Source: Candidatus Bathyarchaeota archaeon (lineage in GTDB: Archaea > Thermoproteota > Bathyarchaeia > 40CM-2-53-6). From it: a DNA stretch of 64,000 bases. A program made the translations under genes and the position numbers. The notes under the pieces are model-generated. The model saw only the letters and a program-made list of their open reading frames with translations, was not told the origin of the DNA and did not search any database. Where the stretch lies: the NCBI GenBank assembly GCA_005888745.1, contig VBBS01000027.1, positions 55,045-119,044 of the forward strand, given 5' to 3'. Shown here piece by piece: positions 6,984 through 58,431 of this stretch. Position 1 is the stretch's first letter. Every line of letters starts with the position of its first letter.

Positions 6984-7469
6984 TTAACTGTCTTGCTTGG
7001 CTGTCTCGACCGGTAGTGGAGCGTCTTCCCCAAGCTGGAGTACTTTCTTCAGTTCTTTTTTCATGAGTGATGGGTCATGGTTGAGATTGAAGTAGTCTGC
7101 GAACGTTGTAGTCGTCCTTAGCATTCTGGTTCTTCCGATCCTCTCGTCATTAATCAGGTCCATGTCCTTCAGCTGTTTCACATGGCCGTAGGCCAGTTTA
7201 CCGCGAACCCGTACCACGTAGGACTGGGTGACAGGCTGCTTCAGAGCTATGAATGATAACGTCCGAAGGGGTCCTGGTGTTAGAAGCGGTCTGTTCGCCA
7301 GTTTTCGAACGTGCTTAGCGAATTCTGCCTTTAGCTGCATGACAAAGCGTCCGTCGGGAAGTTCCACGACTTGAATCGGACTACTGGCGGTTTTGTAACG
7401 TTCAGAAACCGCCGTTGCGATTCCGCGTATCTTGTCCTCTGATCTAGCGCCTACGACAGACCCGATCAT
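6984..7469 (-). CDS. scpB: segregation and condensation protein B
   Basis: ScpB-like winged-helix sequence. Located downstream of scpA and smc on the same strand. Confidence 0.8.
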   Translation of the reverse strand: MIGSVVGARSEDKIRGIATAVSERYKTASSPIQVVELPDGRFVMQLKAEFAKHVRKLANRPLLTPGPLRTLSFIALKQPVTQSYVVRVRGKLAYGHVKQLKDMDLINDERIGRTRMLRTTTTFADYFNLNHDPSLMKKELKKVLQLGEDAPLPVETAKQDS

Positions 7470-7554
7470 CTTCAGGTCTAGTGGTCTTCCGGATACGTAC
7501 AGTGCAGCCTCGCAGAGCTGCTGCTGTAGGTCAGCAGTTTTCTGCTGAGCTGTG

Positions 7555-8232
7555 TTAGTCGAAACTTGTGTTTCCGTCGTCTCTCAGCTCGATTTCGATA
7601 TCACCGAACTCTAAAGGCTGGGCGAGGCCCACTCTTCCTTCTACTGCCAAGAATAGCAGCATGATGAACATTCTGACCGCTTCGAGAGGGTCTCCCTTTC
7701 CAAGGAGGGTTAGGAAGGACAATTTTGTTCGCGCGGATCCAGCTTTTGCTACTAGTCTCTGGAGAAACGCTTTGATATTCTCTTCAATCTTGACGAGGAA
7801 ATCGTCGACTTGTTCAAACACCTCGGGCGTCCTGAGAACCATCTGTGCGTTTGCCGGGAGCATTCTCTCCGCCGTCAACACCTCCAGTAATCCTTTGATG
7901 ACTTCCTCAACAGATGTGGTTGTCGACTCGTAGCGTAAGGGAAAGGATAGGGGAGGGGGAACGAAGTCTGTCGGCCTCTCGAGGGGGGGCTTCGGCGGTT
8001 CCTCCATCTTGAGGATTAGTTCTGATTTCATGCGCAGAAGGATTGCTGAAGAGAGAAGGGCTGTCCCAGAAACGGAGAAGTCGATGAACCCTCGACCCCT
8101 CATCTCATGAAGAAGCTCCTCCAGTATGTTTGCGAGGTTTACGTCCCACGGTTTGACGCGGTGAAGATGGATGAGGTCGAAGAGAACGGCATATGGTGCC
8201 TTCAGCCAGTACGCCTCTTCGTGAAGCGTCAA
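7555..8232 (-). CDS. scpA: segregation and condensation protein A (kleisin)
   Basis: ScpA-like N-terminus (LIHLHRVKPWDVNLANILEELL). Its start overlaps the smc stop by 4 nt. Confidence 0.8.
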   Translation of the reverse strand: MTLHEEAYWLKAPYAVLFDLIHLHRVKPWDVNLANILEELLHEMRGRGFIDFSVSGTALLSSAILLRMKSELILKMEEPPKPPLERPTDFVPPPLSFPLRYESTTTSVEEVIKGLLEVLTAERMLPANAQMVLRTPEVFEQVDDFLVKIEENIKAFLQRLVAKAGSARTKLSFLTLLGKGDPLEAVRMFIMLLFLAVEGRVGLAQPLEFGDIEIELRDDGNTSFD

Positions 8233-32736: not shown

Positions 32737-34422
32737 ACGCCCTCAGTCCAATTCTCTCTGGCGGATCTGGAAGATCTCCTTGGACAGAAGGTTCCCCGAG
32801 ACGAAGACGGGCTCAACCAGCTCCTCGCCTACGTCAAGGGCGACGTGGAATCCCTCGACGAACAGAATGACAGCGTCAGCATCGAGGTCAAAGACAGCAA
32901 CCATCCCGACATCTGGTCGGTAGAGGGAATCGCACGCGCTCTCCGCACTCATCTCGGTCTTACCAAGCCCAAGGCTCCAATCCTTACCGGAAAATCCGGT
33001 CTGAGAGTCACAATAGATCGTAGACTAGGTGCAGTCCGGCCTTTCATCGCAACCTCCATCGTGAGAAACGTCAAGCCAAGCGAGGACGCCCTGAAGAGCT
33101 GGATAAGCCTACAAGAAAAAATGGACCTCACGTACGGTAGAAAGAGAAAACGTGCCTCAATCGGGTTCTACCAAGCCGACCTGATCAAGTCACCTCTTCG
33201 CTACACTGTTGGCAATCCTGAAGACACAGGGTTCGTCCCCCTAGGCTCAACAGAGAAGATGTCTCTCCGAGAGATTGTAGAGAAGCATCCTAAGGGAATT
33301 GAGTATGGAGGAACAATCTCATCTTTCAAAGACTGGCCGCTCCTGGAGAACGGCGACGGCAAGATTCTCTCTCTTCCACCAATCATCAACTCCAACGATC
33401 TGGGCAAGATCGCCTCAGATACGAAGAACATCCTGGTAGAGGTCACAGGGACGAATATCGAAACCGTAGGCAATACGCTGAAGATAGTCGTAGCCGCTCT
33501 CGCCGAAAGAGGAGGCAAGATCTACAGCTGTACTCAAACCTACACGGACAAGTACTCCAAGCCGATAACTACGCCAGACCTGAAATCCAGCATCAAGGAA
33601 TTATCAGTCAACTATGCTAACAGACTTCTTGGATCCACGTTCAAACCAGCAGAGATGATACGATCCTTAGTGAGAGCCGGCCATCCTGCTCGACAGGTGA
33701 GTAAGGACATCTTGCGCGTGGAGAGCCTCTGCTACCGTATCGACATCATGCATCAAGTTGACCTCGTCGAGGATCTCGCGATCGCACTTGACATTAACAG
33801 GCTAGATCCTGAATGGCCGAGAATCTGGACTCTCGGGGGACTAGCGCCTGAAACAGATAGACACGAGACTCTTGCCGAAATCATGATCGGGCTAGGATAC
33901 CAGGAGCTTCTGACCTACAGTCTGACATCCCCTGAAGTCTTCGTTGACAAGATGGGCATAAAACGCGAAAAATACGCGGAGCTGATGAATCCTAAGATGT
34001 CAACCCATACCGCATTGAGAACCTGGCTTCTACCCAGCATTCTCAATTTGCTCAAGGACAATACTCATGTCGATTATCCTCAGAGAGTCTTCGAGATCGG
34101 ACCTTGCGTAGTTGTCAAAGAAAATGGCGAAGGTCAGACGGAAACTCGATACAAGATCGCTGCGGCGACAGTTCACACAGCAGCCGGCTTCACTGAGATT
34201 CGATCTTGCCTCGACACACTCCTCGCAAGCATCGGGGTCAAGTTCGAGGTCGTGCCCACGGTTCAACCGAGCTTTCTCGAGGGACGCACTGGGGAGGTGA
34301 TGTCAGGGCAAGAGCGACTAGGAGTAGTTGGAGAGTTGCACCCGAAGATAATCCGTGCTTGGAGTCTCAGCCTCCCCGTCGCAGCTTTCGAACTAGAGAT
34401 TCCACCAATGGAGGCTGGTTAG
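32737..34422 (+). CDS. pheT: phenylalanine--tRNA ligase beta subunit
   Basis: The PheT-like N-terminus (PSVQFSLADLEDLL...IEVKDSNHPDIW) runs in frame back to ACG 32737, 2 nt after the pheS stop. The ORF track starts at GTG 32845, which removes the conserved N-terminal domain. Confidence 0.85.
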   Translation, partial: TPSVQFSLADLEDLLGQKVPRDEDGLNQLLAYVKGDVESLDEQNDSVSIEVKDSNHPDIWSVEGIARALRTHLGLTKPKAPILTGKSGLRVTIDRRLGAVRPFIATSIVRNVKPSEDALKSWISLQEKMDLTYGRKRKRASIGFYQADLIKSPLRYTVGNPEDTGFVPLGSTEKMSLREIVEKHPKGIEYGGTISSFKDWPLLENGDGKILSLPPIINSNDLGKIASDTKNILVEVTGTNIETVGNTLKIVVAALAERGGKIYSCTQTYTDKYSKPITTPDLKSSIKELSVNYANRLLGSTFKPAEMIRSLVRAGHPARQVSKDILRVESLCYRIDIMHQVDLVEDLAIALDINRLDPEWPRIWTLGGLAPETDRHETLAEIMIGLGYQELLTYSLTSPEVFVDKMGIKREKYAELMNPKMSTHTALRTWLLPSILNLLKDNTHVDYPQRVFEIGPCVVVKENGEGQTETRYKIAAATVHTAAGFTEIRSCLDTLLASIGVKFEVVPTVQPSFLEGRTGEVMSGQERLGVVGELHPKIIRAWSLSLPVAAFELEIPPMEAG

Positions 34423-40552: not shown

Positions 40553-40699
40553 TGGAATCCCCTAGCTGAACCCGAACACCTTGCTCCAAGAGAGATTTGG
40601 AGAATCCACAACTAAAGAGACATGTAACTCACGCTTCCACAATCGCGGATGCGACAATCGGAGCAAAGCCGAAAACTAGATTAATCTAGACACGGCACA

Positions 40700-41263: not shown

Positions 41264-41956
41264 TTGCTCACCGAGTCGCAGTCAGAGATGCTTGGGATAC
41301 TGTTCGGAGATGGGTCGATGTCTGAGAATCACAACTCCGTTCAGATCGTCATAACCGGTCACAAATTCGATGACGTAGAGTACCTAATTGGCCGCGTAGG
41401 TCCGATGTTCGCGGAACTCTTTGAAATGCCCCTCAAGGTACATCTAGTGAAAGATGAAAATACGATGATCCTCTACGCTTACTCCAAACGAATTGCCCTG
41501 ACCCTTCACGAATGGGGAATGCCTTTTGGCCGAAAAAAACTGGCCTGGCTCACACCGCACGTCGCATTGGATGAAGTATCTTTCGTCAGAGGCTTATTCG
41601 ACACAGATGGCTGTGTCTATCGCAAGTATGGCCCTTATTTGCAAATCCAGTTTAAGTTCGCTTCCCTTTCGCTCCTTGAGTACGCGAGGGAGTGTCTGGT
41701 AAGACTCGGCCTGAATCCCACATCGATCAGGTGCGACGATACGAAGTTCAGGTTCTATCTCAGCAGACAAGCCGAGGTAGACCATTTCTTTAGGGTCGTA
41801 GAACCCAAGAACCCAAAGCATCTTAATCGTTTCCAAAATGCTTCTCGGAATCGGTCCTACCGCCCATACACACATCGTCCTGAAGCACTCAGAAGAATTG
41901 GAAACCAACCAAGCCTTATAGGACCAATTCTGTGGAAAACACACTCGGTGGGGTAA
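41264..41956 (+). CDS. free-standing double-motif LAGLIDADG homing endonuclease
   Basis: Motif 1 LGILFGDGSM and motif 2 VRGLFDTDGCVY. TTG start. Confidence 0.8.
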   Translation: MLTESQSEMLGILFGDGSMSENHNSVQIVITGHKFDDVEYLIGRVGPMFAELFEMPLKVHLVKDENTMILYAYSKRIALTLHEWGMPFGRKKLAWLTPHVALDEVSFVRGLFDTDGCVYRKYGPYLQIQFKFASLSLLEYARECLVRLGLNPTSIRCDDTKFRFYLSRQAEVDHFFRVVEPKNPKHLNRFQNASRNRSYRPYTHRPEALRRIGNQPSLIGPILWKTHSVG

Positions 41957-43677: not shown

Positions 43678-44562
43678 ACGAAAGTCGCAATTGTAGGGTT
43701 CGGCATGATGGGCCGGCAGATAGCCCAAGTATTCGCCCAAAATGGCCACGAGGTCGAGGCCACGGATGAGGATCAGCAAGCACTGAAGGCGGGGCTCAAC
43801 GAAATAGCAGACGGGCCCTACGGATTGCACGCGGCTGTTTCAAAAGGAAAACTGGCTGCAGAGCAAGCTCACAGGACTCTAGCAGCCATCAAGACAAGAC
43901 CCGAGCTAGCGGATGTTTGCAAGAACTCGACTCTTGTGATCGAGGCAGCCTTCGAGGAGCTGCAACTCAAACAGAATCTGTTTCACAGAATTGAATCTGC
44001 TGCGCCACCAACTGCGATCATAGCATCAAACACTTCAACCTTGAGCCTGGACAAGATCACCCAAAGAATCTCAAGGAAGGACAGAACGATTGGAATGCAC
44101 TTCTTTAATCCAGCCCAGCTCACAAAACTCGTCGAGATCGTCCGAGGAACGTCGACATCACCTGAAACACTAGAGAAAGCGTCCCAAATCGTCCGGGAGA
44201 TCGGTAAGACCCCTATCCTCGCCCAAGATGAGCCTGGTTTCATCGCCAACCGTCTCGGACTCACCCTCTACATGGAGGCTTCAAGACTGCTAGAGGATCG
44301 TGTCGCAAGTCTCTCTGACATCGACACGTGCATGAGACTCGGATACAACCATCCAATGGGACCCTTCGAACTAGCCGACTTCGTCGGACTTGACACCAGA
44401 CTTCGGAATCTAGAATCACTCTACAAGTCAACGAATGAAAGTAAATGGATACCACCTCAGATTCTAAGAGAGATGGTCCAACAAGGATACCTCGGCGACC
44501 CTGCTAGAAAGAAGACGAGCAAGGGCGGATACTACGAGTATCTCCGGATAAAGCGAGGATAA
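43678..44562 (+). CDS. hbd: 3-hydroxyacyl-CoA dehydrogenase
   Basis: Rossmann motif VAIVGFGMMG plus C-terminal HAD domain. The ORF-track start ATG 43705 cuts through GxGxxG. The frame is open back to the stop at 43663, and the only start-like codon there is ACG 43678. Confidence 0.85.
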   Translation, partial: TKVAIVGFGMMGRQIAQVFAQNGHEVEATDEDQQALKAGLNEIADGPYGLHAAVSKGKLAAEQAHRTLAAIKTRPELADVCKNSTLVIEAAFEELQLKQNLFHRIESAAPPTAIIASNTSTLSLDKITQRISRKDRTIGMHFFNPAQLTKLVEIVRGTSTSPETLEKASQIVREIGKTPILAQDEPGFIANRLGLTLYMEASRLLEDRVASLSDIDTCMRLGYNHPMGPFELADFVGLDTRLRNLESLYKSTNESKWIPPQILREMVQQGYLGDPARKKTSKGGYYEYLRIKRG

Positions 44563-45019
44563 GAAAATCCCAACCCTTTATACAGAACATAAGCCGTGTC
44601 AACTCCACTGGTTGTTATTTGGTGTGTTAACTTCGTTCGTCTCCAGCCGTTACCTTCGAAGTATGACTCTTCACATGTTAGGCGGTCGTCGCATGAACCT
44701 GTCACGTTGGGATGAGGGGGATGACTCCGATCAGGTGACGGGTCAGAAATGGGATAGCCGGTTGGCTGGCCACCGTAAAATCCTTGCTTGGCAATCGGCC
44801 AAGTTACCACGCTATGGGCGTGAGGGGGCGGTTGAGGTTCGACCGTTCCCTGCCAAAAAGAGACTACATGTCTCTGAGGCGCAAGGGCTCGCAGGTGAAG
44901 CAGTGAAGAGGAACCCGCCGACGACGGTAATCCTCCGAGCAGATGAGAGCAAGTCTAGTCCCCCAGCAACGGAAGACTCGACAGAACCCAGAACACAACC
45001 CACAAACCATCGATGATGA

Positions 45020-46658: not shown

Positions 46659-47660
46659 GTGCCGGGAAGGAACAAGAAACGGCCGAAATTGGACCTCAAC
46701 ATCTTCCCCGGAAACTGGACTGTCACGAATGACCGGATGTTCAAGGCCTTCGACCTGTCCTTCGCCCAGAACTGGAACCCTGCTACTTTTCCTTGGGATG
46801 AACTTGACCAGAAGAATTTCGACTCGAAGGAGAGAATAGCGCAAGCCTACTGGATGTCCAAACTGGCTCTCTTCGAGAAATCTGGAATTGGAGCCTTCGG
46901 CTTTGGGGCCGTAAGAGCCGCAGAACTGAACATGGAAGACCCCACGAAGAAGATGCTTGCCTCCATCACATACGATGAATGCCGGCATGACGAAGTCTGC
47001 CGAAGAGCCTGCGACAAGCTCTGTCCCAACTGGCCATACGGATACAAGCCACAATCAGATTTCGAATCAAGGGCCCTCCGAAACATCAAGGCACTCTACG
47101 ATGACGGCAGACGCTACTGGGAAGGATTCCTAAAGGCGTGGGAATATTTGCCGCCTGAGATTCTGTTCGCTGGCTTCTTTTTTGCGGAAATAGGCGCAGA
47201 AACGATCTTCAACGCGATGCGCCAGACCAGCAAACTCGGAATCTACCAACAAACCTTCCGAAATATTACACGAGACGAGACTCGCCATCTCGTTGCGACA
47301 ATGGCCCTGCTCCGGGCCATGGCCGAGAAGTTCTCGGAGGAACAGAAGATGACTATTACCCGGCAGATGAAGCAGGGCTTCATCTTTCTCTCACCCCTCC
47401 TCTACCAGCACAAGCCCGAGTTCTGGCATCTCCCCGCAGACTTTGACAAGGTCGACCAGGAGATGGAGGAAGCGGCCAGGGACGCGGGACTGGGAGTGCT
47501 CACCCTTGAAGAGAAGGTGAAGTTCTGGAAGGAAGCGATTGAGAAGAAACGGTCCGAGATAGAAGAGATGGGAATCAAGGTACCCGCCATCCCAGAGCTG
47601 GGAGTTGAGGGCGAAGAGGTTCAGGTTAAGAAGAACGAGACTATAGCCACGAGCTTCTAG
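46659..47660 (+). CDS. ferritin-like diiron-carboxylate oxygenase (PaaA/BoxB/acyl-desaturase-like)
   Basis: Two ExxH motifs (YDECRHDEV, TRDETRHLV) in a helical context. GTG start. Confidence 0.65.
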   Translation: MPGRNKKRPKLDLNIFPGNWTVTNDRMFKAFDLSFAQNWNPATFPWDELDQKNFDSKERIAQAYWMSKLALFEKSGIGAFGFGAVRAAELNMEDPTKKMLASITYDECRHDEVCRRACDKLCPNWPYGYKPQSDFESRALRNIKALYDDGRRYWEGFLKAWEYLPPEILFAGFFFAEIGAETIFNAMRQTSKLGIYQQTFRNITRDETRHLVATMALLRAMAEKFSEEQKMTITRQMKQGFIFLSPLLYQHKPEFWHLPADFDKVDQEMEEAARDAGLGVLTLEEKVKFWKEAIEKKRSEIEEMGIKVPAIPELGVEGEEVQVKKNETIATSF

Positions 47661-47667
47661 GAAGTGG

Positions 47668-47985
47668 TTGAAGATCACGAAGATCATAGTCCTGTTCGGA
47701 CAACCGAAAGACCCCGAACTATTCGATGAGCAATACTGGAAAGACCATGTTCCAATAGCGAAGGCGATGCCAGGTTTGAAGAAATACACAGTTCACAAGA
47801 TCGTTGGGGCACCACGAGGAGAACCGGCATACTACCAGGTTGTCGAACTGGAATTCGAGAATATGGACAGCCTGAAGAAAGCATTGGAAAGCCCGGCCGG
47901 ACGCGAATCAGGCCGGCACGGCGTAAAGATTGCTACTGGTGGCATAACTTTCCTTTACGCGGAATCAAGAGAAGCGATGCCGTAG
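47668..47985 (+). CDS. EthD/Dabb-family small alpha-beta barrel protein
   Basis: KIIVLFGQPKDPELFDEQYWKDHVPIA N-terminal pattern of the EthD family. TTG start. Confidence 0.55.
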   Translation: MKITKIIVLFGQPKDPELFDEQYWKDHVPIAKAMPGLKKYTVHKIVGAPRGEPAYYQVVELEFENMDSLKKALESPAGRESGRHGVKIATGGITFLYAESREAMP

Positions 47986-48077
47986 AACAACAACAGTCTA
48001 GCCCGGTTCCATCTGACATATTCCTCGGAAAACGTTCTTCTAATCAGACCCGTCAGTTCTAGGACAGGAGCGGGGAA

Positions 48078-49235
48078 GTCTTAGGCCGCATCGGAATCGT
48101 TGGAGTTGGACATTCAAAGTTCGGAAAAAGGAGCGACGCCTCCCTCCGAGAGCTAGCATTCGAAGCGTACAGTTCCGCCCTAGATGACGCCGACATCGAC
48201 TCTTCAAAAATAGACGGTTCAATAGTTTGCTCCGCCACTCACTACGACAAGCAACGATCGCCTGCAGGTGTTGTTGCGGAATATCTCGGACTCAATCCCC
48301 AACCAACATTCAACGTTGAGGCAGCCTGCGCCTCCAGCGCTGTTGGCCTTCGGACCGCGTGGGCGCTTGTCTCATCAAAACTTCATGATGTGGTGGCCGT
48401 TGTGGGGGTGCAGAAGATGACCGAACTCTCCTCGGAGGAGATCCAGGAGCTCATGGGCAGAGCAGGGGACGTCATGTGGGAGTCTCCCTTCGGAACAACA
48501 ATGCCCGCATACTACGCCTCCTATGCTAACGCCCACATGGCCAAGTACGGAACTACAGAGGAACAAATGGCGCTCGTGTCGGTGAAGAACCGAAAATACG
48601 GATCCAAGAATCCTAACGCCATGTTTCAAAAACCCATCCAATTGGAAGAGGTCCTAAAATCGCGAATGGTATCTTATCCTCTAAAACTATACGATTGCTG
48701 CGCCAATGCTGACGGGGCGGCATGTCTGCTCATTACTAGTGCCGAAAAAGCAAAGAAAATTTCTGATAGACCCGTATGGATCTCCGGGCTTGGCCTGGCT
48801 TCGAGTCCCATGTCGCTTGCTGGAAGAAAAGGTCCATTGACGAGTTTCGATGCCACAAGAAATGCGGCGAGAACGGCATACGAAATGGCCAATATCAAAC
48901 CACACGACGTACATGTGGCGGAGGTTCATGACTCTTTCTCGGTAACAGAAATCATCAATTATGAAGACCTCGGATTCGCACGACCTGGAAGGGGTGCTAA
49001 GCTTCTGGAAAACCAAGGCACGGAGCTCGGCGGGAGAATCCCCGTCAACATCGACGGAGGCTTGATTTCCAAAGGCCATCCAGTCGGAGCCACAGGCGCG
49101 TCCCAGATCTTCGCATTGGTCAAACAACTACGGGGGGAAGCGGGTAGCGTTCAGGTCGACGGCGCTAAGATTGGTCTCGCACAGAACATAGGGGGAATAG
49201 GAATGTACTGCTCCGTTACGATCTTGCGCTCATGA
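48078..49235 (+). CDS. thiolase (SCP-x-type acetyl-CoA C-acyltransferase)
   Basis: Thiolase N-terminal domain (GRIGIVGVGHSKFG...AACASSAVGL active Cys) is in frame with the called ORF 48390..49235. The frame opens at 48063, and there is no ATG, GTG or TTG before 48390. Start position uncertain. Confidence 0.75.
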   Translation, partial: VLGRIGIVGVGHSKFGKRSDASLRELAFEAYSSALDDADIDSSKIDGSIVCSATHYDKQRSPAGVVAEYLGLNPQPTFNVEAACASSAVGLRTAWALVSSKLHDVVAVVGVQKMTELSSEEIQELMGRAGDVMWESPFGTTMPAYYASYANAHMAKYGTTEEQMALVSVKNRKYGSKNPNAMFQKPIQLEEVLKSRMVSYPLKLYDCCANADGAACLLITSAEKAKKISDRPVWISGLGLASSPMSLAGRKGPLTSFDATRNAARTAYEMANIKPHDVHVAEVHDSFSVTEIINYEDLGFARPGRGAKLLENQGTELGGRIPVNIDGGLISKGHPVGATGASQIFALVKQLRGEAGSVQVDGAKIGLAQNIGGIGMYCSVTILRS

Positions 49236-49281: not shown

Positions 49282-50208
49282 TTGCAGGTGGACATTCAAG
49301 AGTTGACCCCCATTCAAAGCTTCGGCAGAAGAATTCGAGCCTATGATAAAGCCACACGCCTCGCAAAGGAAGGTCGCCCTGTCACTGAAATCTCGAAAGA
49401 GACGGGAACGCCTGACGCTACCATCAGGGGATGGCTCGTAAACGGTCGAAAACCTTGGACCCGCTGCGAACTCTTCAAACCAACGTACTCTGATCAATTA
49501 ACATATGTTATCGGTGTTTACATGGGAGACGGCTCGATTTCCCGATGGAGAAATCGTTTTTTACTGCGATTAGATGTCAAAGACAAAGAATTCGCCGATA
49601 AGTTTTCTTCAACATGCGCACATGTTCTGGGTAGGAAACCATATTCTGTGAGGCATGTCAGGGATAGGGACACATACGAGACTATCATTTCAAACGCGTC
49701 TTTCTGCAAGTTCCTCAACCGAGGCCTCACCCACCTGGATCGGTATGTACGGGAGCATCCCTCTGGCTTTGTTAGAGGTTTAGCTGATAGCGATGAGTGC
49801 CCCACTGTGACAACAACAAAAAAGCGGGGCAAACCCTGGTTCTTCGTCCAAGTTGTAGTAGCAACATCCAAGAGCATACGCTTACTGAGCTATACTCGGA
49901 CGATCCTGAGGGAATGCCTCGGACTCAAAGCGACGCTAGTGTACAAAGGCAAGCCAAGACCCAGTGTGTTCAAGAACAAGTTGCTCCGTTCAAGAAAGAG
50001 GGTCTTTGACCTTAGGATATCGCGCTTTGGTGACGTGAAACGATTCTCCCGGGTTGTTGGTTTCGAATTGGCTCGGAAACAAGAGAAGCTTGCCGCTGCT
50101 ATCTTCGTCCGTGAAGGATTTGGTTCTGGTCAGGATGCGGTGAAAGAGTGGACCCGTCGCTGGGAGCATGGCACCACTGAGTGGATTCTCAAGAAAGGAG
50201 TGGACTAG
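49282..50208 (+). CDS. free-standing LAGLIDADG homing endonuclease with N-terminal HTH
   Basis: Motif 1 YVIGVYMGDGSI and motif 2 FVRGLADSDECP. TTG start. Lies between the thiolase and DUF35 genes. Confidence 0.8.
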   Translation: MQVDIQELTPIQSFGRRIRAYDKATRLAKEGRPVTEISKETGTPDATIRGWLVNGRKPWTRCELFKPTYSDQLTYVIGVYMGDGSISRWRNRFLLRLDVKDKEFADKFSSTCAHVLGRKPYSVRHVRDRDTYETIISNASFCKFLNRGLTHLDRYVREHPSGFVRGLADSDECPTVTTTKKRGKPWFFVQVVVATSKSIRLLSYTRTILRECLGLKATLVYKGKPRPSVFKNKLLRSRKRVFDLRISRFGDVKRFSRVVGFELARKQEKLAAAIFVREGFGSGQDAVKEWTRRWEHGTTEWILKKGVD

Positions 50209-50211
50209 GCA

Positions 50212-50620
50212 ATTGGGTTTTGAAAAGTTCGGGAGATTTGGTTATGTCTCCCAGACCAAGATCAACCCCTTGTTATCCTATCTGGAAAAGGGGCAGATTG
50301 CCGCGACCAAGTGCAAGAAGTGCGGGAGAACGTACTTTCCACCAAGAGCCGAGTGCCTGGACTGCCGCCACAGTACGATAGAATGGGTTGTAGTGGACGG
50401 GAGGAGCAAACTGATCACATTCACCCAGGTTTTCTTCGCACCACCCGCCTTTCAGCACGAAACCCCGTACATGCTAGGACTTGCGGAACTCACGAATGGG
50501 CTTCGCGTATTCGCGCCTGTCAGTCCTGCAGTGGAAAAGGAGCAACTCAAACCGGGCGTCGAGCTGACCTTGAAGGTTGCAAAAGGCTCACGTGACAACT
50601 TGTACTACTGGCTCGAATGA
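50212..50620 (+). CDS. DUF35 OB-fold/zinc-ribbon protein (thiolase partner)
   Basis: CKKCGRTYFPPRAECLDC ribbon plus OB-fold. The ORF track starts at ATG 50168 inside the endonuclease gene. TTG 50212 with an upstream AAAGGAG gives the typical ~135-aa DUF35 length. Confidence 0.7.
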
Positions 50621-56956: not shown

Positions 56957-57025
56957 AGGAACGCTCTTTTATAGCCTCACCAGGTTTGGATTGCGGACTT
57001 GACAGTTCAAATTCAGAAATACAAA

Positions 57026-58431
57026 ATGCTGATCGGGGGAGAGTGGAAGGACAGCGCAAATGGCGCTGTTTCATCAGTTCTTGATCCTTCAAACAACGTA
57101 CAAGACAGGACGCGAAAGCTGCAGTCGTGAGTGCGAAGATCGCGCTGGAGTCGGCCGGCTGGGTCGACATTGATCCCAGCAAGAGAGGGCGTCTCCTAAC
57201 TAAGCTCACAACTCTGGTCAGGGAGAATTCAGAGCAGCTGGCAAAGCTTGAAACCATGAGTGAGGGGAAGACTCTCCGAGAGTCTAAGGGTGATGTTGCC
57301 TGGGCGGCCAGGGCGTTCGAGTACTGGGCAGGACTGGCGGACAAGGTTGAAGGAGAAACCATACCTGTTCCGCCGAGACGTCTGAACTACACTCTTCGTG
57401 AGCCGCTAGGCGTAACGGTCCATATTGTTCCTTGGAATTATCCGATCGCGCTTGCTGCTAGAAGTTTGGCACCGGCAATTGCAGCAGGGAATACTGTTGT
57501 CGTGAAACCGTCTGAGATTACTCCTCTTACAGCGATTATGCTGGGAGATCTAGCGCTTAAGGCCGGCATCCCCAAAGGTGTTATCAACGTTGTAACTGGA
57601 TCAGGTGCTGAAGTAGGCGAAGCACTTGTGTCGGACCCGCGAGTGGACGGGATAGTTTTCACAGGGTCCGCTGAGACAGGAACGCAGGTGATGGAGTCAG
57701 CCGCGAAAAATGTTACAAGGGTACTTCTGGAGTTAGGCGGTAAGAACCCGCATATTGTCTTCCCTGACGCCGACTTGGCGAAGGCCGCTAAGAGCGTGAA
57801 GGAAGGCATTTTCACCAATGCTGGACAAATGTGCTGGGCCGGATCTAGGGCATTCATTCACGAGAGCATATACGATGATTTCGTAAAGGACCTCGTCGCC
57901 AAGACCCGAGCGATAAAGGTCGGGCCTGGAAGAGATGATACCAGCGAGATGGGACCCTTAGCCTCAAAGGCTCGGCAAGACGTGGTTCTCGGGTTTGTCA
58001 AGGACGGCCTCGAAGAAGGGGCAAGTCTTCTCTGCGGGGGGAAGAAACCATCTGACCCAGGACTGCAGAAGGGAAATTTCGTCGAGCCCACCATTTTCGA
58101 GAACGTCAACGGGAAGATGAAAATCGGGTGCGACGAGATTTTCGGACCTGTTCTGGGCCTTACCCAGTTCAAGACTCTCGACGAGGTTGTTGCTATGGCC
58201 AATGAGACAGATTATGGACTATACGGGGGAGTCTGGACGAGCAATTTGAAAGTCGCTCATGAACTCGCTGTTCGTCTCCAGGTCGGTGGACTAGCCGTGA
58301 ACGAGTATTTGGTGACCTTTCCGCAGACCCCGTTCGGCGGCTACAAGGACAGCGGAATAGGACATGAAAACGGCATACGCTCGTTAGAATTCTACACACG
58401 AACCAAGAATGTCTCGATAAACCTTTCCTAG
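57026..58431 (+). CDS. aldehyde dehydrogenase, interrupted by a -1 frame change near 57085-57127
   Basis: Main body 57127..58431 (catalytic Cys region AGQMCWAGSR, ELGGKNP). The conserved N-terminus MLIGGEWKDSANGAVSSVLDPSNN is encoded from ATG 57026 in the frame offset by +1 and stops at 57130. The body frame opens at 57085. Confidence 0.75.

Follow-up and report, generated by a model that had tools for sequence, protein, structure and literature searches.

How is a gene translated when its reading frame is intact and its N-terminal domain complete, and no ATG, GTG or TTG stands near its beginning? This question is raised by a thiolase gene of a Candidatus Bathyarchaeota archaeon, which lies on the forward strand of a 64,000-nucleotide stretch of contig VBBS01000027.1 (GenBank assembly GCA_005888745.1). 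We refer to this whole stretch as the window and number positions from its first letter; the features discussed are collected in Table 1. Our sequence comparisons place the thiolase start at a TTA codon, and they indicate that ACG and CTG recur at conserved start sites in this lineage, one of them the start of an essential gene, and that the proteins concerned are mis-started in public annotations.

Position of the thiolase start

An earlier note, made from the letters alone, had described the thiolase frame as open from 48063, with its first in-frame ATG, GTG or TTG at 48390, a complete N-terminal domain carrying the catalytic Cys region, and no canonical start in the nearby frames. The sequence itself, the list of open reading frames (ORFs) and a separate scan bear out this description of the frame. 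An in-frame TAG (48060-48062) bounds it upstream, seven codons 5' of the start position, and is followed by GAC AGG AGC GGG GAA GTC TTA GGC CGC ATC GGA ATC GTT; from 48063 the frame is open through TGA 49233-49235, and GTG 48390 is its codon 110. No start-like codon lies in this frame between the TAG and the TTA, and a reading of the sequence found ATG, GTG and TTG absent from the other two forward frames across 48063-48099. An indel that would join a start in a different frame to the gene is ruled out, as no forward frame holds a start in this interval and the ortholog alignment is unbroken. Feed-in by frameshift or readthrough does not fit either: six sense codons separate the TAG from the TTA, and 5' of the TAG the same frame runs through intergenic sequence and holds no ORF of at least 40 aa.

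The N-terminal domain is complete, as had been claimed. Pfam finds Thiolase_N (PF00108) at residues 12-227 and Thiolase_C_1 (PF22691) at residues 258-389 of the open frame, and the presence of both domains across the full length fits an SCP-x or archaeal-type thiolase. From knowledge of the family, we take Cys83 (EAACASS motif, 48327-48329) and His333 (GHPVGATG motif, 49077-49079) to be the catalytic residues. A homolog search returned thousands of matches, the closest of them 82-98% identical and nearly all 384 aa long. The earlier note had looked to archaeal thiolases for the expected Met, and in the orthologous N-terminus, M-[G/S]-R-I-G-I-V-G-V-G, this residue aligns to TTA 48081-48083. PDB entries 7yvy (E 1.6e-81) and 6esq (E 5e-64) align over the full length of the thiolase; counted from the TTA codon, their N-termini align at residue 4-5, the 7yvy_A alignment spans residues 5-383, and both active-site motifs align with 7yvy. 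No ortholog begins at the position equivalent to 48390, a start that the earlier note had likewise thought unlikely. The alignments argue that the TTA codon is the true translation start. Since the first internal ATG, GTG or TTG of the orthologs may come as early as codon 4 or as late as codon 107 (median 39), the long start-free stretch of the thiolase does not appear odd by itself, and only the codon at position 1 stands out as abnormal.

Public annotations probably mis-start this protein. Other gene callers derive from this sequence a product of 272 aa (MTELSS...) that begins at ATG 48417 and is short of 112 N-terminal residues, among them the active-site Cys; in relatives without a canonical start they use a TTG 24 codons downstream (360-aa calls) or an Ile codon. 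The 360-aa calls and the 272-aa call of the window look like gene-finder fallbacks where the canonical start is missing. NCBI instead annotates the ATC at 48090, which would give a protein three residues shorter (MGIVGVG...). As the sole start, this ATC has the choice of PGAP behind it, counts among the rare starts that table 11 recognises, lies one base from ATG, and would cost only M-G-R, a loss that would probably spare the fold; one study of E. coli puts AUC initiation at about 1-2% of the AUG level (10.1101/063800). We nevertheless consider it improbable. Its column is an ordinary Ile/Val codon in orthologs (ATC, ATT, ATA, GTC, GTT, GTA or GTG) with no start-specific conservation, and it stands 19 nt from AGGAG, as against 10-11 nt for the conserved start in all close relatives. 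Moreover, in relative L004 PGAP took another Ile codon for the same reason, and the ATC is probably a fallback of the annotation pipeline.

Start codons of thiolase relatives

The start column was read in 103 orthologous thiolase loci of soil Bathyarchaeia, taken from species-representative genomes, JGI metagenomes and individual contigs, all with intact ORFs of 383 or 384 codons. Across these loci, which share kinship, it reads ATG in 75, TTG in 14, CTG in nine, ACG in three, GTG in one and TTA in one, the window. Translation table 11 admits ATG, GTG, TTG, CTG, ATT, ATC and ATA as starts; neither TTA nor ACG belongs to the set. If a near-cognate is a codon with one mismatch to ATG, then CTG, ACG and the AGG described below, found in relatives and other genes, qualify, whereas TTA, which differs at positions 1 and 3 and lies a single change away from TTG, does not. 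In the main CTG lineage and at the ACG loci, no in-frame canonical start was found between the upstream stop and the start column; L119 is an exception, with a GTG three codons downstream of the column. As a control, 59 loci outside the clade were considered, and each of the 57 scorable homologs starts at a canonical codon placed 2-4 codons ahead of the G-x-G motif. Non-canonical thiolase starts therefore number 0/57 outside the clade and 13/103 inside it (Fisher p = 0.004, phylogeny not corrected for).

The start codon of the thiolase appears to turn over much faster than its protein. The shallow cluster that contains the window (at most 12% nt distance) includes ATG (L001), CTG (L002, L003, L085) and TTA (the window), and other clusters mix TTG, ATG and CTG. 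CTG-start genes form two clusters whose coding sequences are about 21% apart in nucleotides (dS > 1, dN/dS 0.05-0.10) and whose leaders are almost identical, and the ACG-start genes L153 and L163 differ with dS 0.63 and dN/dS 0.06. Because genes with these starts have diverged with low dN/dS, CTG and ACG appear to be kept as starts of functional thiolase genes.

The leaders of the CTG-start genes are an observation in their own right. About 60 nt of leader and the first codons are near-identical in L002, L003, L008, L024, L085, L099, L105 and L106, and L003 and L008 have one difference in 60 nt of leader despite about 21% divergence of their coding bodies. Either very strong selection on the leader or a spread of the 5' region by recombination may be responsible.

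The leader of the window thiolase

The leader of the window is most similar to those of L005, L086 and L087, all of which read TTG and have in common with it a spacer 1 nt shorter than in other relatives. In L005, the leader ttctagtttaggagcggggaagtt is followed by TTG GGC CGT; in the window, ttctaggacaggagcggggaagtc is followed by TTA GGC CGC. Because the most similar leaders, with the same shorter spacer, read TTG, the simplest history would be a change from TTG to TTA through a single G-to-A transition at 48083, which is the kind of one-base difference from a canonical start that the earlier note had proposed to look for in related genomes.

The start is preceded by the purine-rich element CTAGGACAGGAG, composed of CTAGGA and then CAGGAG, which we regard as a putative Shine-Dalgarno sequence. 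The earlier note had placed an AGGAG at 48064-48068; the motif is present, but its position is the one given in Table 1. A sequence of the form (T/C)AGGAGC or AGGAAGC is kept 10-11 nt before the start throughout the close subclade, whether a relative starts with ATG, TTG, CTG or ACG. The preceding EthD-domain gene ends at a stop (47983-47985) 95 nt before the thiolase start and in another frame, so that the geometry of termination-reinitiation is absent here. Folding of the leader RNA gave minimum free energy z-scores of -1.0 to +0.9 in the window, L003, L005 and L001, among which nothing stood out, and an Rfam scan of the whole window found no family at gathering score, ruling out a known riboswitch or leader.

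Non-canonical starts elsewhere in the window

At least four of about 60 genes in the window have a non-canonical codon at a start anchored by homology: the thiolase, pheT, scpB and the gene for 3-hydroxyacyl-CoA dehydrogenase (3HCDH). The TTA alone is a modest curiosity, and the lineage-wide pattern is the interesting part: ACG, CTG, AGG and TTA occur at homology-anchored starts in abundant uncultivated archaea.

One of these genes, pheT, encodes the beta subunit of PheRS and has ACG at the position of Met1. Residues 9-161 of its open frame align with residues 2-154 of Pyrococcus horikoshii PheRS-beta (PDB 2CXI), and the first canonical start comes 36 codons past the ACG. The codon is the same in the window and in 10 of 10 related loci read (L182-L191), which together make up four sequence types, and some of these loci have an in-frame TAG three codons upstream of it. 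Gene calls miss this start: none of the 85 protein clusters with at least 72% identity has the 561-aa length expected from the ACG, none of 11 close relatives whose N-termini were read begins at its position, and the calls of close relatives are truncated or shifted at the N-terminus (525-564 aa vs 561). More distant relatives (63% identity or less) measure about 555-561 aa, and the two that were read both begin MPSVQF. NCBI starts the pheT of the window (TMI09171.1) at a CTG seven codons downstream. Because PheRS-beta is essential, the comparison implies that ACG must work as the pheT start.

In scpB, the first canonical start lies 16 codons into the Pfam SMC_ScpB match, and homologs start MEAQVST... 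at the ACG column. This column reads ATG at 11 loci (L166-L176), AGG in L165 and ACG in the window; the gene-caller product of 161 aa is missing the initial helix of the ScpB domain. In 3HCDH, the window and L181 have ACG at the start column where L177 and L179 have ATG, and the next canonical ATG of the window gene (43705) falls within the Rossmann GxGxxG loop. All three ACG genes are downstream partners in close pairs: pheS and pheT are separated by 1 nt, scpA and scpB overlap, and the thioesterase (4HBT) gene and 3HCDH are 12 nt apart. A fusion of pheS and pheT by +1 frameshift or readthrough was rejected as a general mechanism, since the stop (TAG or TGA) and the codon before it vary in relatives. 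At pheS-pheT there is no conserved slippery site, and at 3HCDH the frame relation likewise differs from one relative to another.

Further departures from ATG are common in the neighbourhood. CTG stands at the start column of relatives of the EthD gene (six loci), of a LAGLIDADG ORF (three) and of the DUF35 gene (one). TTG is the commonest start at homology-anchored columns, both in the 40-56 kb part of the window and at loci L001-L164. The DUF35 column reads TTG at 53 loci, ATG at 33, GTG at five and CTG at one, and that of a conserved 333-aa protein TTG at 29, GTG at 28 and ATG at seven. In that part of the window, the genes that start with TTG are PQQ, LAGLIDADG_3, RpiB, 4HBT, two enoyl-CoA hydratases (ECH1 and ECH2), EthD, LAGLIDADG, DUF35 and CarboxypepD_reg. 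A Pfam screen of stop-to-stop translations of the other window genes, which is insensitive to displacements of a few codons, found no more N-terminal truncations.

Authenticity of TTA and integrity of the gene

The window comes from a metagenome-assembled genome and the TTA is one base from a canonical start, so that an assembly or base-calling error in an organism that really has TTG must be weighed; we regard this as very unlikely. The truncated 272-aa call with exactly the sequence of the window is found on five contigs from JGI/IMG and ENA, the longest of 87,412 bp, and the searched protein collection contains no 384-aa protein with this sequence. The same gene callers give 384 aa where TTG is present, as in L005, yet they give 272 aa for the window sequence; the TTA therefore seems to be a real allele, and we infer from these calls that independent assemblies of this population are also without a canonical thiolase start. 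The three other non-canonical starts of the window are likewise common to independent assemblies or relatives.

Apart from its first codon, the gene appears intact. Compared with L001, an ATG-start gene that is its nearest relative at 93.4% nt identity, it has 66 synonymous and eight non-synonymous differences, with dN/dS 0.032; against other relatives dN/dS is 0.06-0.08. No further lesion was found in the 384 codons, and Cys83 and His333 are present, so that the gene shows neither the additional lesions nor the relaxed constraint of a start-loss pseudogene.

Weak initiation or recent loss of the start

We lean towards weak, non-canonical initiation at the conserved thiolase site, at TTA with ATC as a fall-back. 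TTA can be read as a weak start because the lineage tolerates CTG and ACG starts on constrained genes, including the essential pheT. In the mechanism that we propose, the small ribosomal subunit would be positioned by the conserved purine-rich element, 10-16 nt upstream of the TTA, and the initiator tRNA would start at TTA, or else at the ATC three codons on, at low efficiency. The heavy reliance of the lineage on UUG would mean that first-position mismatches are well tolerated, which would explain CUG, and ACG and AGG starts would mean that a second-position mismatch is tolerated. UUA would retain the central pair alone, and weak initiation would be expected. The TTA allele would then be a low-expression version of a working thiolase and not a dead gene. 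Natural start-codon variants can be adaptive, as reported for lacI GTG (PMC11445065).

Several observations weigh against weak initiation at TTA. TTA occurs at one of 103 loci, and persistence over evolutionary time is seen for CTG and ACG only. Two of its three bases do not match the initiator anticodon, and the E. coli study gives, relative to AUG, 10-100% for GUG and UUG, about 1-2% for CUG and AUH (AUC included), and about 0.01-1% for codons outside these (10.1101/063800); the text consulted does not name TTA. The support from five contigs consists of gene calls, from which the TTA is deduced there. The low dN/dS argues against long-standing decay and is still compatible with a very recent loss. 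Finally, the genome holds decaying genes: about 9 kb downstream, an aldehyde dehydrogenase gene carries a 25-nt frameshifting deletion and is probably a pseudogene.

The chief alternative is a recent start loss, in which the change from TTG to TTA would have silenced the thiolase and left a very young pseudogene or a near-null allele (a knock-out or knock-down). We consider such a loss less likely than weak initiation. It would account for a codon that is unique among 103 orthologs and has two mismatches to AUG, it has a parallel in the nearby aldehyde dehydrogenase, and the fragmented LAGLIDADG/DUF35 region of L177 points to parts of the cluster being dispensable in some genomes. It accords poorly with the lack of a second lesion and the low dN/dS, with the presence of the allele on five contigs from two data sources (as judged from gene calls), with the purifying selection under which relatives keep their thiolase with CTG or ACG starts, and with an essential pheT that runs on ACG in this very genome. 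On the sequence evidence, the TTA is either a very weak start or a fresh start loss.

Start selection in the lineage

Could the transcripts be repaired instead? A-to-I editing at UUA would make it read as UUG, and C-to-U editing would turn ACG into AUG and CUG into UUG; TTA, ACG and CTG, all but AGG, are each one deamination from a canonical start. ACG-to-AUG start-codon editing is established in plant organelles. To our knowledge, there is no evidence for mRNA editing in archaea, which counts against this explanation. Deamination could not mend the AGG of the L165 scpB, editing would call for two different deaminase activities, and nothing in the window suggests an editing factor; we find editing scarcely credible.

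A broader proposal, which we make only tentatively, is that this clade of soil Bathyarchaeia has an altered or relaxed start specificity, in which ACG and CUG are routine and AGG and even UUA usable, through a lineage-specific alteration of the initiation machinery (initiator tRNA, aIF1 or aIF2) or at the mRNA level, and not because weak starts happen to be tolerated in one gene or another. If so, standard gene finders would truncate or mis-start several percent of the clade's database proteins, and the protein catalogues of these organisms would be systematically truncated at the N-terminus. The clade would also offer a natural archaeal system for how the aIF1/aIF2 machinery sets the stringency of initiation.

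Non-AUG starts are familiar from E. coli infC (AUU) and lacI (GUG), and well-studied genomes have just a handful of genes each with non-standard starts. The proposed case resembles these prokaryotic examples in that one initiator tRNA would act on a mismatched codon, at a site set by upstream mRNA signals, with a weak codon meaning low expression. It differs in that the codons go beyond table 11, in the two mismatches of TTA, and in the share of genes, about 4/60, one of which encodes an essential subunit of an aminoacyl-tRNA synthetase. The near-cognate starts that eukaryotes use most are CUG, ACG and GUG, under the control of eIF1, eIF1A and eIF2. Archaeal start selection uses homologs of the eukaryotic factors, namely aIF1, aIF1A and aIF2 (review PMC7531240). 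CTG and ACG recur in genes of soil Bathyarchaeia as well; in contrast to eukaryotes, there is no scanning here, and the sites lie behind Shine-Dalgarno-like elements or directly after an upstream stop. Moreover, eukaryotic near-cognates mostly give extra isoforms or upstream ORFs, whereas here they are the sole start of the main protein. Ribosome profiling in Haloferax placed about 30% of putative alternative initiation sites at near-cognate codons, and the authors set these aside (PMC7261190).

Termination-reinitiation coupling (Huber et al. 2019, PMC6728339) matches the geometry of pheT, scpB and 3HCDH and could help these three ACG genes in their coupled pairs; the thiolase is unlike them in being uncoupled. 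Our literature search found no report of reinitiation using ACG, nor of ACG as a conserved archaeal start or of unusual start usage in Bathyarchaeia, an absence that is no proof of novelty.

Gene neighbourhood and further features

Table 1. Coordinates of the thiolase, its signals and the other genes discussed, in window positions
Feature	Position	Strand	Remarks
scpB, ACG (7577-7575) at conserved start	6984..7577	-	overlaps 3' end of scpA
pheT (PheRS beta subunit), ACG 32737-32739 at Met1	32737..34422	+	1 nt after pheS stop
3HCDH, ACG 43678-43680 at conserved start	43678..44562	+	
Conserved box AACGTTCTTCTA	48031..48042	+	about 40-50 nt 5' of start; core invariant in aligned leaders
Purine-rich, Shine-Dalgarno-like element CTAGGACAGGAG	48059..48070	+	AGGAG 48066-48070, 10 nt 5' of TTA
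Thiolase coding sequence, 384 codons + TGA	48081..49235	+	counted from conserved start position
TTA at conserved start-codon column	48081..48083	+	103-locus codon column; probable G-to-A change at 48083 from TTG
ATC, start in NCBI annotation	48090..48092	+	381-aa MGIVGVG..., TMI09185.1, 100% identical
First canonical in-frame start, GTG	48390..48392	+	use costs N-terminal 103 residues including Cys83
LAGLIDADG_3-domain ORF between thiolase and DUF35	49282-50208		conserved in clade (L002-L004, L179, L181), TTG or CTG starts
DUF35 partner (zf-ChsH2 + OB_ChsH2_C), TTG start	50213..50620	+	Pfam
Aldehyde dehydrogenase gene	about 56999-58431		25-nt deletion after 57098 vs L177, L181; frame shifted after about 33 codons

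The neighbours of the thiolase are two enoyl-CoA hydratases, 3HCDH, a thioesterase (4HBT) and an EthD-domain protein. No HMG-CoA synthase gene was found within about 10 kb on either side of the thiolase in the window, L177, L179 and L181. The family and its surroundings indicate an ordinary SCP-x or archaeal-type enzyme with a DUF35 partner in a beta-oxidation-like cluster, and not a mevalonate module, because the HMG-CoA synthase gene is not adjacent. The archaeal complex of acetoacetyl-CoA thiolase, HMG-CoA synthase and DUF35 (PDB 6esq/6et9) is alike in its thiolase homology and its downstream DUF35 gene, and unlike in that an adjacent HMG-CoA synthase is missing here and a LAGLIDADG ORF separates the thiolase from DUF35. 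The L177 counterpart of this LAGLIDADG/DUF35 region, downstream of its thiolase, is fragmented into short ORFs. The window has additional LAGLIDADG_3 genes near the thiolase, at 41264-41956.

Upstream of the Shine-Dalgarno-like element, the conserved box is a candidate promoter or operator element, and the wider clade carries the variant AACCTTCTTCTA at the same position. The window contains one exact copy of AACGTTCTTCTA; with up to two mismatches there are 10 copies against five expected, which is not significant. One two-mismatch copy, at 56960-56971, precedes the aldehyde dehydrogenase gene by about 30 nt. CTAGG occurs 1-16 nt before seven gene starts near the thiolase, at 40565 (minus strand), 41249, 43662, 47657, 48059, 49276 and 50205, and may be part of a ribosome-binding signal or just the TAG stops of upstream genes; in the window as a whole it is not enriched (47 and 45 copies per strand vs about 65 expected). 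A tRNA scan of the window found none.

Between ECH2 and EthD, a conserved protein of 333 aa (46659-47660) has no Pfam match; its two E-x-x-H motifs, DECRHDE and DETRHL, hint at a di-iron carboxylate protein. Between 3HCDH and ECH, about 400 extra bases (44563-45019) are absent from L177, L179 and L181 and have no Pfam match. A 71-nt stretch within them is 82% identical to the 3' end of the L181 TnpB (Cas12f1-like_TNB) gene, and the insert may be the remnant of the end of an IS200/605-type element.

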